Shown: positions 11,825 through 17,342 of the stretch, in pieces
How the letters are laid out: each line of letters starts with the position of its first letter
Numbering within the stretch: position 1 is the first letter of the stretch
NCBI RefSeq assembly: GCF_003334305.1
Contig: NZ_QOWS01000040.1
DNA: 17,427 bases
Origin: Escherichia coli
GTDB taxonomy: Bacteria; Pseudomonadota; Gammaproteobacteria; Enterobacterales; Enterobacteriaceae
Strand: one strand, 5' to 3'
Notes under the pieces: generated by a model
Told to the model about the DNA's origin: nothing
Databases searched by the model: none
The model's input: only the letters and a program-made list of their open reading frames with translations
Made by a program: the position numbers and the translations under genes

Positions 11825-13294
11825 ATGCATATCGATTCGACTGAAAAAAATAATAAACAAAAGTTGGGCTTGCTTGCGCTAACATCCATTGTCGTGAGCT
11901 CGATGATCGGCAGCGGCGTTGACGGACTCCCCCAGAATATGGCGGAGAATTCTGCCGTGGGCCCGGTGGCGATAGCATGGATAGTCTGTGGTATCGGCAT
12001 GTTTTTCATCTCCAGAACTTTTATCGTGCTGTCAAACATTAGACCTGATCTCCAGTCAGGAGTTTATATGTATGCCCGGGAAGGGTTCGGCCGATTTACG
12101 GCATTTAACGTCGCCTGGGGCTACTGGCTGATGACTATATTCAGCAACGTCGCCTTTGCCATTATGGTGATGGATACGCTGAATTATTTCTTACCAGGTG
12201 ATTTCAAGGGAGGGAACAATATTCCTTCCGTTATCGGTGCCTCTTTGCTGATATGGGGATTCAACTTTTTAGTCCTCTCCGGTACCCGCATTGCCGGGTC
12301 GATTAACATCGTCGGCACGCTGGCCAAACTGATCCCGCTGGTGGCCTTTATTATTATTCTCATGCTGTTTATGAAGTACACCACGTTCGCAGATAACGTC
12401 TGGGGGCACAGCGCGAGTAAGGCCAGTCAGGACCTAGGCTCTATTTTCTCACAGGTAACTTCACCGCTTAGCGTGGCACTCTGGAGCTTCATCGGCGTTG
12501 AGGGGGCTGTCGCTCTTTCCGGTCGGGCCAAAAATAAACGCGACGTGGGTAAAGCCACATTAATTGGCTTCGTTGTATCACTGATTATCTGTCTGCTGGT
12601 CTCCATCCTACCGTTTGGCGTGCTGACTCAACATGAGCTCAGCGCAATTCCAACCCCATCCACCGCCGGTATTCTGAAGATTGTTGTCGGTGAATGGGGG
12701 AAGATTATGATTATCTTGGGGGTGCTGATTTCGGTGCTTACCAGCTGGCTGGCGTGGACCATCATCTGCGCCGAACTGCCTATGGTGGCCGCGCAGAACG
12801 GCACATTCCCGAAACCGTTCAGCAAAAAAAATGTGAAGGGTTCGGCCTCGGTTTCGCTTTATATAAGCAGTGCGTTTATGCAAATCGTCGTACTTCTGGT
12901 CTACTTTTCTAACGATGCCTGGCTTGCAATGCTGGCTATCTCTACCCTGACCGTTTTACCTGCGTATTTAATGACCACGGCATACCTGTTTAAACTATGT
13001 ATTAGCGGCGAGTATGCCAGCTATACCACGAATCACAGCCGCAGCGCCGCGCTGGTCAGCAGTATTATCGGCTTTGTATTCTGCCTGTTTATGTTCTACG
13101 CCAGTGAAATCAAATATCTGGCGATGGTTCCGGTGCTGCTTACGCTGGGCGTGCCCCTGTTTATCTGGGCAAGAAAAAAAGACGATCGCGCAGATAAAAT
13201 ATTTACGCTACGCGAACTGGCATTTTTTATTTTACTGCTGGTCCTCGACATCATTGTTTTTATTCTACTGCATTATAAAACGATACATTTTTAG
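11825..13294 (+). CDS. APC-superfamily basic amino acid/amine antiporter, ArcD/YdgI-like (paralog 1)
   Basis: The 489-aa protein is hydrophobic throughout. The N-terminal KLGLLALTSIVVSSMIGSGV.GLPQN motif, ..REGFG.F..FN.AWGYWL.. and ..GVEGA..LSGRAKN..DVGKAT.. parallel my recollection of E. coli YdgI/ArcD rather than AdiC/CadB/PotE. A weak SD (AAGAG) lies 7 nt upstream. Confidence 0.85.
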   Translation: MHIDSTEKNNKQKLGLLALTSIVVSSMIGSGVDGLPQNMAENSAVGPVAIAWIVCGIGMFFISRTFIVLSNIRPDLQSGVYMYAREGFGRFTAFNVAWGYWLMTIFSNVAFAIMVMDTLNYFLPGDFKGGNNIPSVIGASLLIWGFNFLVLSGTRIAGSINIVGTLAKLIPLVAFIIILMLFMKYTTFADNVWGHSASKASQDLGSIFSQVTSPLSVALWSFIGVEGAVALSGRAKNKRDVGKATLIGFVVSLIICLLVSILPFGVLTQHELSAIPTPSTAGILKIVVGEWGKIMIILGVLISVLTSWLAWTIICAELPMVAAQNGTFPKPFSKKNVKGSASVSLYISSAFMQIVVLLVYFSNDAWLAMLAISTLTVLPAYLMTTAYLFKLCISGEYASYTTNHSRSAALVSSIIGFVFCLFMFYASEIKYLAMVPVLLTLGVPLFIWARKKDDRADKIFTLRELAFFILLLVLDIIVFILLHYKTIHF

Positions 13295-15768: not shown

Positions 15769-15786
15769 GCGGGGGAAAGAACAATA

Positions 15787-15812
15787 CCGTCGGATCGCCT
15801 GCAATCCGACGG
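15787..15812 (+). other. Intercistronic stem-loop between the decarboxylase and transporter 2
   Basis: CCGTCGGAT-cgcctgca-ATCCGACGG forms a perfect 9-bp stem starting 19 nt after the decarboxylase stop. No T-run follows it, so it is more likely an mRNA processing/stability or partial-attenuation element than a full terminator. Confidence 0.4.
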
Positions 15813-15842
15813 CAATATTATAGAATAGCTGAGGGAAACGTT

Positions 15843-17342
15843 ATGGCAGAGCAATCTTCAGATGTAAAAAATAGTGACAATAGCGCCGGAGGACATAAGC
15901 TGGGGCTTATATCCCTCATCGCTATTGTCGTTAGCTCCATGCTGGGAGGCGGCGTTTTCAGTCTGCCGCAAAACACGGCGGCCTCTTCTGCACTAGGGCC
16001 AGTAATCATTGCATGGATTATTGCCGGGATCGGTATTTATTTTATCGCAAACTCCTTTCGCGTACTATCAGATCTGCGCCCGGACCTTCAGGCTGGAGTG
16101 TATATGTATGCCCAGGAAGGTTTTGGTTCCTTTATTGGCTTTAACGTCGCCTGGGGCTACTGGCTGATGACCGCATTTGGCAACGTTGCCTTTGCGGTAA
16201 TTTTAATGGATGCTTTTAATCAGTTTATGCCGGGGGTTTTTACGGATGGTAATAATCTGAACTCCATTATCTGCGGCTCAGTGCTGATCTGGGGCTATAA
16301 TTTTCTTGTTCTGTCCGGGACGAAAGTGGCCGGATTTGTTAACACCTTGGGAACCATCGCCAAGCTCGTCCCTCTGATCCTATTCGTATTACTGCTGGGT
16401 GTGCTGATCGATTATTCGGACCTGTTTAAAAATTTTTGGGGAGAATCACCCGCGATCCTCAGTGGCAACGGAAATGACGCCGCACCAGTATCGCTGCTGT
16501 CTCAGATTCTGGCACCGATGACCGTAACGCTCTGGGCCTTTATTGGCGTCGAGGGAGCGGTTGTTCTATCCGGACGTGCCAAAAATAAACAGGACGTAGG
16601 GAAAGCCACACTGATCGGCTTTCTGCTGGCGCTAATTATTTATATGTTAATGTCCATTCTGCCGTTCGGTGTAATGCCTCAGGCAGAACTAGCGCAGGTC
16701 AGTAACCCCTCTACCGCAGGCGTGCTCGCCCACGTTGTCGGTCAGTGGGGCGACTGGCTGATGAGCGCGGGGCTGATTATTTCTGTTCTGGCCGGCTGGC
16801 TTGCCTGGACCATGCTATGCGCTGAAATACCGATGGTAGCAGGACAGAAAGGCGCTTTCCCGCGCGCGTTTGCCCGAACGAACAGTAAACAGGCGGCCAA
16901 TGTGTCACTGTGGGTTAGTAGCTTTGTGATGCAGGCGGCCATGTTACTTGTTTATTTTTCAAATAATGCTTGGACCACCATGTATAATATCAGTGCGCTG
17001 ATGGTTGTTCCGGCCTATATTACCACCACGCTGTATCTGACCAGTATTTGCAGAAACGGAAAATATGATCAGTATGCAAAAAAAGGCCGCAGGCTGGCTT
17101 TGTCCAGCGGTGTTTTAGGCTCGCTATTCTGTCTGTTTATTCTTTACGCCAGCCAGATTGAGTATGTTGCATTAATTCCTATCCTGTTGACCTGTGGTCT
17201 GCCGGTCTTTATCTGGTCAAGAAAAGAAAAAAATGATGGTCAGCCGATATTTACCAAAAAAGAGCTGATTTATCTGATTATGCTGTTGCTGTGCGATATT
17301 ATCGTCGTTGCCCTGTTTATTGGTGGATATTTAAAGGTATAA
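15843..17342 (+). CDS. APC-superfamily basic amino acid/amine antiporter, ArcD/YdgI-like (paralog 2)
   Basis: The 499-aa ORF has a GAGGG SD 7 nt upstream. It aligns end-to-end with paralog 1, with well over half of positions identical by eye. It carries the canonical TM1 motif SSMLGGGVFSLPQN. Confidence 0.88.
   Translation: MAEQSSDVKNSDNSAGGHKLGLISLIAIVVSSMLGGGVFSLPQNTAASSALGPVIIAWIIAGIGIYFIANSFRVLSDLRPDLQAGVYMYAQEGFGSFIGFNVAWGYWLMTAFGNVAFAVILMDAFNQFMPGVFTDGNNLNSIICGSVLIWGYNFLVLSGTKVAGFVNTLGTIAKLVPLILFVLLLGVLIDYSDLFKNFWGESPAILSGNGNDAAPVSLLSQILAPMTVTLWAFIGVEGAVVLSGRAKNKQDVGKATLIGFLLALIIYMLMSILPFGVMPQAELAQVSNPSTAGVLAHVVGQWGDWLMSAGLIISVLAGWLAWTMLCAEIPMVAGQKGAFPRAFARTNSKQAANVSLWVSSFVMQAAMLLVYFSNNAWTTMYNISALMVVPAYITTTLYLTSICRNGKYDQYAKKGRRLALSSGVLGSLFCLFILYASQIEYVALIPILLTCGLPVFIWSRKEKNDGQPIFTKKELIYLIMLLLCDIIVVALFIGGYLKV

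Follow-up and report, generated by a model that had tools for sequence, protein, structure and literature searches.

A second, aspartate-bearing antiporter homologue beside a decarboxylase/antiporter pair in Escherichia coli and other bacteria

The stretch of Escherichia coli DNA analysed here (17,427 nucleotides of contig NZ_QOWS01000040.1, referred to as the window) contains a three-gene cassette on the + strand, in which a decarboxylase gene lies between the genes of two related antiporter homologues, paralog 1 and paralog 2. Paralog 1 carries an aspartate, Asp33, next to the unwound loop of transmembrane helix 1 (TM1), at a position where paralog 2 has the phenylalanine that is canonical for the family. 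Transporters with this aspartate (D-type) form a clade of their own, which is the sister of the clade of paralog 2 (F-type). The initial annotation had proposed that the two paralogs are specialised rather than redundant, and this proposal is now well supported by the monophyly of the D-type proteins with the F-type proteins as their sister group, by the co-occurrence of both types around a decarboxylase in multiple genera, by cassettes which contain an F-type antiporter only, and by joint changes in the binding site. Paralog 1 probably differs in its task from the canonical partner and may handle the amine product.

AdiAC, CadBA, GadBC and AaxBC exemplify the pairing of a decarboxylase with an antiporter, known from textbooks as the 'virtual proton pumps' of enteric bacteria, and such pairs have been taken to need one exchanger. 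Beside such a pair, a widespread and conserved second transporter with a rebuilt alpha-carboxylate subsite has now been identified. The three genes of the cassette are the following.

11825-13294, + strand: paralog 1, D-type basic amino acid/polyamine antiporter homologue, 489 aa
13399-15768, + strand: Orn/Lys/Arg-type decarboxylase dependent on pyridoxal phosphate (PLP), 789 aa, closest to the biodegradative arginine decarboxylase AdiA
15843-17342, + strand: paralog 2, canonical F-type antiporter homologue, 499 aa

Asp33 and the residues that changed with it

The residues discussed below are encoded at these positions of the window.

11897-11938, + strand: TM1 motif S25-N38, SSMIGSGVDGLPQN (AGC TCG ATG ATC GGC AGC GGC GTT GAC GGA CTC CCC CAG AAT = S25-SMIGSGVDGLPQ-N38), with G29-S30-G31 as the unwound G-x-G loop
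11921-11923, + strand: codon GAC of Asp33, which defines the clade; located in the first TM1b turn and aligned with AdiC Phe29
12143-12145, + strand: Ser107 on TM3, between Thr104 and Asn108 (AdiC Cys97 and Asn101); Gly in the F clade and in AdiC (Gly100)
12578-12592, + strand: Ser252-Cys256 (TCA...TGT) on TM7, with Cys256 in place of the family Tyr and Ser252 in place of Ala
12740-12748, + strand: Thr306-Ser307-Trp308 on TM8; Trp308 corresponds to AdiC Trp293, and 306-307 are Ala-Gly in the F clade
15957-15959, + strand: codon TTC of Phe39 in paralog 2
16641-16643, + strand: Tyr267 on TM7 of paralog 2

Reading of the codons confirmed the annotated aspartate of paralog 1. The equivalent segment of paralog 2 (15933-15974) reads SSMLGGGVFSLPQN, with Phe39 at the position of Asp33, and that of YdgI from E. 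coli K-12 reads SSMLGAGVFSLPQNMA, again with Phe, so that the Phe-Ser which the annotation had given for both was correct. Its placement of the aspartate inside the unwound G-S-G segment had to be revised. In the HMMER alignment Asp33 corresponds to AdiC Phe29, two residues past AdiC G25-S26-G27. An AlphaFold2 model of paralog 1 (built with 143 homologues; pLDDT 85, pTM 0.85) has a helix at 16-28 (TM1a), unwound G29-S30-G31 and a helix at 32-40 (TM1b) in which Asp33 occupies helix position N2. The best PDB matches of the model are AdiC entries, and with the outward-open AdiC structure 5J4N it gives a TM-score of 0.90 at 26% identity. Asp33 therefore lies outside the substrate-contacting G-x-G loop and adjoins it in the first turn of TM1b. 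The contacts to the substrate backbone in AdiC are made by Asn22, Ile23, Ser26, Gly27, Trp202 and Ile205 (PMC4970712); in the AdiC-specific structural literature that was searched, neither Phe29 nor Tyr239, the TM7 residue discussed below, is mentioned.

Among the best 120 homologues of paralog 1, 110 have Asp at position 33 and the other 10 are paralog-2-like proteins with Phe or Tyr. All 110 members of the paralog 1 clade among these matches carry the aspartate, down to about 52–57% identity, and their TM1 motif is near-invariant, with variation at positions 34 (G/S/A) and 30 (S/G/A). The paralog 2 homologues covering the region have Phe or Tyr in 108 of 108 cases and Asp in none. For the wider family we used 115 representatives covering TM1, taken from 50% identity clusters drawn from 1.84 billion proteins: 113 have Phe or Tyr, one has an ambiguous Ser, and the single Asp belongs to the paralog 1 clade's own representative. 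Within the transporters of 81 genome loci, Asp occurs in the 16 D-type cassette members only and the other 85 of 85 have Phe or Tyr. Chance does not come near to explaining this distribution. Position 33 is about 99% conserved in the family; at the next position, 34, Asp is found in 11 of the 115 representatives (about 10%), and at 33 never outside the clade. As judged from these alignments, the position is hydrophobic, almost always aromatic and never acidic outside the D clade. The more distant relative CadB has Ala there, which is why the rule is worded as hydrophobic and usually aromatic, not as strictly aromatic.

The annotation had named a frequent Asp among arginine/ornithine exchangers as an observation that would speak against its proposal; the residue is absent from AdiC, YdgI, the ArcD-like representatives and the AaxC-like relatives. 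The tallies over representatives and loci, together with YdgI, rule out that Asp33 is a common family residue. A strain mutation or sequencing error is likewise ruled out, by cassettes of at least 99% identity and by the presence of Asp in the divergent orthologues mentioned above. A compensating basic partner of Asp33 in a salt bridge was also considered. Arg/Lys64 on TM2 is the one basic change specific to the clade (the F clade has Arg67 instead), and it was dropped as a partner, being located near the cytoplasmic end of TM2, absent in about 10–15% of the D-clade members and probably too distant.

A small set of positions that fully discriminate the two types was obtained by comparing 83 D-type with 60 F-type sequences. 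The most telling of them, which the annotation had not pointed out, is Cys256 on TM7; it aligns with AdiC Tyr239 and with Tyr267 of paralog 2 and is Cys in 109 of 110 D-type proteins, where 106 of 108 F-type proteins and 72 of 105 family representatives have Tyr. AdiC Tyr239 is equivalent to Tyr236 of BasC, whose hydroxyl occupies the Na1 place of Na+-coupled LeuT-fold transporters and lies within hydrogen-bond distance of the substrate alpha-carboxylate, the first Gly of the TM1 loop and TM6a (PMC6472337). The same Tyr position in BasC and the human LATs touches the alpha-carboxylate and tunes the affinity asymmetry; the only mutant studied in BasC, Y236F, has an altered cytoplasmic apparent affinity (PMC6472337). 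Paralog 1 naturally has Cys there. Apart from GadC, every APC-family member whose structure has been solved has a TM7 Tyr in contact with the alpha-carboxylate, the binding of which is favoured by the positive end of the TM1b helix dipole (PMC8399266). Ser252, which is Ala in the F clade, lies one turn from Cys256 on the same face of TM7.

In addition, most D-type proteins have Ser or Thr where the F-types have Gly or Ala at positions 30 (AdiC Ser26), 107, 306 and 307, of which Ser107 is, from its aligned position, best read as a binding-pocket substitution. The basal D-clade members P0088, P0098 and P0104 have D33/S252/C256 and still have Gly at 30, 107 and 307, which makes D33/S252/C256 the founding change. 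The replacements Tyr to Asp (TAY to GAY; 11921-11923) and Tyr to Cys (TAT to TGT; 12590-12592) require one base each, and many F-type and outgroup proteins have Tyr33, so that the founding D33/C256 pair could stem from two point mutations in a Tyr/Tyr ancestor.

The residues of the gate and of the core binding site are kept in paralog 1: Y100, N108, W220, I223, E226, W308, S373 and Y381 correspond to AdiC Tyr93, Asn101, Trp202, Ile205, Glu208, Trp293, Ser357 and Tyr365, and Y100, N108, W220, E226, W308 and Y381 are invariant or nearly so in both clades. From this conservation of gating and binding residues we conclude that paralog 1 is not a decaying gene. A further difference concerns the E. 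coli lineage itself, as Lys293 of paralog 1 (12701-12703; in the EL4 loop after TM7) stands where 102 of the 110 D-clade members have Glu, a lineage-specific charge reversal.

Family membership, origin and gene neighbourhoods

Both paralogs, which are 55% identical to each other, belong to the APA family of the APC superfamily (TIGR00905: paralog 1 488.3 bits, paralog 2 493 bits, cut-off 409), and the model of paralog 1 has the LeuT/APC fold with the TM1 G-x-G unwinding. The residue set for alpha-carboxylate recognition, i.e. a hydrophobic or aromatic residue at +2 after G-x-G together with the TM7 Tyr, is present as Phe and Tyr in paralog 2, YdgI and AdiC and is missing from paralog 1. As this set is a conserved feature and does not formally define the family, paralog 1 remains in the APA family as a variant. 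Both proteins stay below the ArcD equivalog cut-off (TIGR03810: 442.2 and 449.8 bits for paralogs 1 and 2, cut-off 591) and fail the CadB, PotE and histidine/histamine equivalogs; on the AdiC equivalog NF007929 paralog 1 reaches 146 bits with a cut-off of 574. No arcABC genes were seen near the cassette, whose neighbours are the decarboxylase and insertion sequence (IS) elements, and the same cassette is found at syntenic loci of other genera. Score cut-offs and genomic context rule out that paralog 1 is ArcD sensu stricto or AdiC.

As in AdiAC, CadBA, SpeF-PotE and AaxBC, the antiporter gene adjoins a decarboxylase gene and is conserved with it; the cassette has two antiporters for its decarboxylase instead of one. 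The decarboxylase scores best on the AdiA model NF011603, nonetheless reaching 739.9 bits with a cut-off of 1167, and its best PDB matches are the AdiA entries 7P9B and 2VYC. As it stays below that cut-off, it is no AdiA equivalog.

Among characterised systems, the E. coli arginine/agmatine antiporter AdiC (PDB 3L1L, 5J4N, 7O82) has the same fold, the G-S-G loop and equivalents of the gate residues, and is likewise encoded beside an AdiA-type decarboxylase; it differs in having Phe29 and Tyr239 in place of Asp33 and Cys256 and in being the sole antiporter of its system. The arginine:ornithine exchangers ArcD/YdgI are the closest named subfamily, and YdgI and paralog 1 have SSM[IL]G.G[VI]..LPQNMA in common. 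YdgI and the ArcD-like representatives differ from paralog 1 by the Phe, and paralog 1 by its sub-threshold ArcD score and its location away from arcABC. The AaxC-type antiporters of AaxABC-like loci are about 50% identical and are encoded beside a decarboxylase, which makes them precursor/product exchangers by context. They differ in having one antiporter per locus, Phe or Tyr at position 33 and Tyr or Phe on TM7.

In a neighbour-joining tree of 50 sequences with 100 bootstraps, the D clade was monophyletic in 100/100 replicates, the F clade was recovered in 93/100, and both were sisters in 99/100. The next outgroup consists of AaxC-type antiporters whose genes adjoin those of a pyruvoyl arginine decarboxylase and an OprB-type porin, which is the chlamydial AaxABC layout, and a further relative is an antiporter beside a pyruvoyl histidine decarboxylase. 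The monophyly of the D clade, its F-type sister and the decarboxylase-linked outgroup indicate a single origin of the D-type by duplication of a decarboxylase-linked exchanger, with Asp as the derived state. In 20 of 20 genomes the D-type orthologue is less conserved than its F-type partner; measured against the E. coli proteins, the median identities are 65% (D-type), 78% (F-type) and 72% (decarboxylase), with paralog 2 orthologues ranging from 72 to 86% across genera. Full-length D-type open reading frames are kept across Enterobacterales, Burkholderiales, Acinetobacter, Ignatzschineria and Wohlfahrtiimonas.

The gene orders observed around the D-type and F-type transporters are the following.

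D-type, decarboxylase, F-type: Citrobacter, Klebsiella, Proteus, Serratia, Bordetella, Candidimonas, Alcaligenes, Commensalibacter and others
Decarboxylase, F-type, D-type: loci L082 and L091
D-type divergent or convergent to decarboxylase and F-type: Acinetobacter (L086, L089)
F-type and D-type 3' of a pyruvoyl decarboxylase resembling phosphatidylserine decarboxylase (PSD), which replaces the PLP enzyme: Wohlfahrtiimonas (L007, L015)
D-type 5' of genuine cadB-cadA (each scoring above its NCBIfam cut-off): one metagenomic contig (L088, 398-5387; Logan SRR31477552_15850)
Decarboxylase and F-type pair without a D-type: L008, L009, L014
D-type without a decarboxylase in view: L090, one short contig of 6 kb

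D-type genes were also found in Providencia, Hafnia and Achromobacter. They are almost always linked to a decarboxylase and a canonical antiporter, with varying gene order, and the converse fails. Where a cassette has two antiporter genes the extra one is always D-type, and among the loci examined no decarboxylase cassette had a D-type as its sole antiporter and no regulator gene consistently adjoined the D-type. This is the pattern of an accessory component which has joined a canonical decarboxylase/exchanger pair, not that of a redundant copy. The D-type beside cadBA keeps D33/S252/C256 and differs at positions 104 and 111 (AdiC Cys97 and Met104), which make side-chain contacts, suggesting that the triad addresses the ligand at its head-group end.

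Several of these neighbourhoods deserve mention for their other genes. The PSD-like enzyme of Wohlfahrtiimonas (453 aa, PF02666 + PF12588; L007 4897-6258, L015 4971-6329) lies directly 5' of the F-type and D-type pair and scores far under the phosphatidylserine decarboxylase equivalog cut-offs; a homologue with 29% identity is encoded next to a Ruegeria F-type antiporter (L035 9610-10725). This suggests that PSD/PsiD-like amino-acid decarboxylases associated with antiporters make up a class yet to be characterised. In Acinetobacter (CP127915.1) a gene for a FomA-family porin-like outer-membrane protein (L086 8542-9567) separates the D-type gene from the decarboxylase/F-type operon, recalling the porin AaxA. 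The AaxABC-like loci which supply the nearest outgroup combine an OprB-family porin, a pyruvoyl arginine decarboxylase and an ArcD-family antiporter, and come from metagenome-assembled genomes of gut Alphaproteobacteria, Verrucomicrobia/Opitutales and Elusimicrobia (L023 6191-9452, L027 7320-10862, L030 6106-9449). In an Acidocella metagenome-assembled genome (L034 7866-10363) an ArcD-family antiporter, 47% identical to paralog 1 and with Phe at the position of Asp33, adjoins a PF02329 histidine decarboxylase and is by context likely a histidine/histamine exchanger.

Possible functions of paralog 1

Our preferred explanation, to which we assign a probability of roughly 0.4, is that paralog 2 carries out 1:1 precursor/product exchange while paralog 1 handles the amine without the amino acid, by means of a negative charge supplied in cis. 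Paralog 1 would be a derived accessory transporter which originated from one duplication of the cassette's canonical, paralog-2-type antiporter. At the base of the clade, the aromatic residue of TM1b would have been replaced by Asp33, the TM7 Tyr by Cys256 and the TM7 residue one turn away by Ser252, all around the alpha-carboxylate/Na1-equivalent subsite; pocket-lining Gly and Ala residues at 30, 107, 306 and 307 would have become Ser or Thr later, the remaining APC machinery staying intact.

APC-family transporters recognise the alpha-carboxylate by means of the backbone amides of G-x-G, of the TM1b helix dipole and of the TM7 Tyr hydroxyl (for the dipole and the Tyr: PMC8399266, PMC6472337). 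In paralog 1 the loop is kept, and Asp33 at N2 could neutralise the TM1b dipole and cap the free amides, with the Tyr hydroxyl being lost. Asp33 might in this way supply in cis the negative charge that is normally brought by the amino-acid substrate. The amino acid would then be disfavoured, its carboxylate being repelled, and a doubly charged, carboxylate-free amine of the agmatine or cadaverine type, as made by the decarboxylase, would be favoured, its second positive charge being attracted. Physiologically, paralog 2 would perform the 1:1 exchange, and paralog 1 would act as a valve for the amine product that needs no amino-acid counter-substrate.

A parallel exists in the monoamine transporters of the neurotransmitter:sodium symporter (NSS) family, which have an Asp in TM1 (DAT Asp79, SERT Asp98) where the amino-acid transporter LeuT has Gly24. 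In these LeuT-fold proteins the missing carboxylate of the amine is replaced by one of the protein's own, beside the unwound TM1 and the Na1 site. They belong to another family, are Na+-coupled and have their Asp at the position of the first loop Gly, four residues before that of Asp33, so that the likeness would be one of mechanism only. By this analogy the D clade could represent a natural conversion within APC, in which an exchanger of amino acid and amine became a carrier that is amine-specific or cation-coupled, with Asp33 and Cys256 replacing the alpha-carboxylate of the substrate, an idea which we hold to be possible but on balance doubtful. If it is true, the D-type is an independent parallel to the TM1 Asp of the eukaryotic monoamine transporters, the carrier reorients without an amino-acid counter-substrate and would thus allow uniport or H+-coupled flux of amine, and the bacterial decarboxylase-based acid and energy systems have a previously unrecognised third component. 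More generally, if the Asp/Cys pair shifts the selectivity to the amine or adds ion coupling, it offers a two-residue handle on alpha-carboxylate recognition in the APC/SLC7 fold, with relevance to LAT1 and other SLC7 drug targets, and adds to the amine export and acid adaptation of bacteria a step that had gone unnoticed.

Several observations weigh against an amine carrier of this kind. AdiC transports agmatine without such an Asp (PMC8399266), and the Asp is consequently not required for amine transport. AdiC Phe29 is not among the substrate contacts named in the AdiC literature searched. BasC Phe24 and Lys25, which correspond to positions 34 and 35 of paralog 1, face the external gate (PMC6472337); on a helical wheel, position 33 consequently falls at the back of TM1b, turned to TM7 and TM2 and away from the pathway, and Asp33 may be buried near the Na1-like cavity, perhaps never contacting the ligand directly. 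A product-only exporter has no obvious stoichiometric need beside a 1:1 exchanger. The substrate of the decarboxylase is a best guess, arginine, made from the similarity to AdiA and the AaxC-like outgroup. The D-type linked to cadBA comes from a single contig, and a scan of the JGI metagenomes gave no second case. Finally, the literature search found no experimental data on the cassette and, with incomplete coverage of the literature, no paper on the cassette or on the subclass with the TM1b Asp.

The main rival explanation is that Asp33, Ser252 and Cys256 bind H+ or Na+ at the Na1-equivalent position, which would turn paralog 1 from an obligate exchanger into a symporter coupled to ions or an antiporter of amine and H+, and could for instance allow net precursor uptake in a role comparable to that of LysP beside CadBA. 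We regard this as somewhat unlikely. The back-face position suggested for Asp33 by the helical wheel, towards TM7 and not the pathway, is compatible with this explanation as well as with amine transport. The Tyr filling the Na1 place is replaced by the small Cys, Ser252 follows on the same face at a distance of one turn, and Asp33 adjoins the equivalent of the LeuT Na1 ligand Asn27. Asp together with Ser and Cys is a typical makeup of cation sites, and membrane-embedded carboxylates are the usual elements of H+ coupling. On the other hand, such a site presupposes that the three side chains converge, it would have one acidic ligand only, and proton import would oppose an acid-resistance cassette; the H+-coupled APC transporters ApcT and LysP moreover rely on other residues and retain the TM1b aromatic.

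Two further explanations are less consistent with the data. The initial annotation's suggestion of a protonation switch would mean that protonated Asp33 behaves canonically and that deprotonation near neutral pH closes the transporter or alters its affinity, so that both paralogs cover different pH windows with the same substrates. In its favour, the pKa of a carboxylate buried in the bundle near the substrate should be shifted, pH gating is known from decarboxylase/antiporter systems such as GadC and AdiC, and many genera keep both paralogs together. The switch leaves the joint loss of the TM7 Tyr and the later Gly-to-Ser changes in the pocket unexplained, and AdiC and GadC are gated by pH through Glu208 and the C-plug instead, of which the Glu is retained in paralog 1 as Glu226; we consider it improbable. 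Least probable of all is that paralog 1 does not transport, either as a sensor (transceptor), for which the co-sensor LysP is a precedent, or as a slowly decaying duplicate with Asp33 as a tolerated helix cap: the loss of two family-wide conserved residues by the substrate site and the lower conservation in all 20 genomes would fit, but full-length reading frames are kept across the groups listed above, Asp33 is invariant in 110 of 110 members while its neighbours 30 and 34 vary, all gating residues are conserved and no regulator consistently adjoins the gene.

The cassette in E. coli

In the window, the fec operon fecIRABCDE (235-7780) is followed by IS fragments at about 8.3–11.3 kb and then by the cassette. 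The intervening region (8300-11300) consists of IS3/IS1 debris and a truncated alcohol dehydrogenase gene. The G+C content of the cassette is about 45–54%, below the 52–62% of the fec genes. At least 80% of the cassette query was matched in 495 of 5,426 complete E. coli genomes (about 9%), including that of the uropathogen CFT073, and the cassette is at least 99% identical across hundreds of E. coli genomes. In CFT073 (L001) the same IS-flanked cassette is located in the selC island, in a different neighbourhood and beside a Qat anti-phage system. The cassette is evidently mobile as an IS-bounded module.

Within the cassette, the spacers are 104 nt (paralog 1/decarboxylase) and 74 nt (decarboxylase/paralog 2) long. 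A promoter-like site was found 5' of paralog 1, and a scan of the spacers found no strong + strand terminator between the genes. The shorter spacer contains the following element, which may form an mRNA structure and act as a stabiliser or an attenuator.

15785-15814: perfect hairpin with a 13-bp stem (TACCGTCGGATCG...CAATCCGACGGCA)

Additionally, the protein cluster P0194 represents a truncated form of paralog 2 (371 aa, 100% identical over 74% of the length) with 168 E. coli sequences, so that some strains may have a disrupted F-type gene with the rest of the cassette intact.

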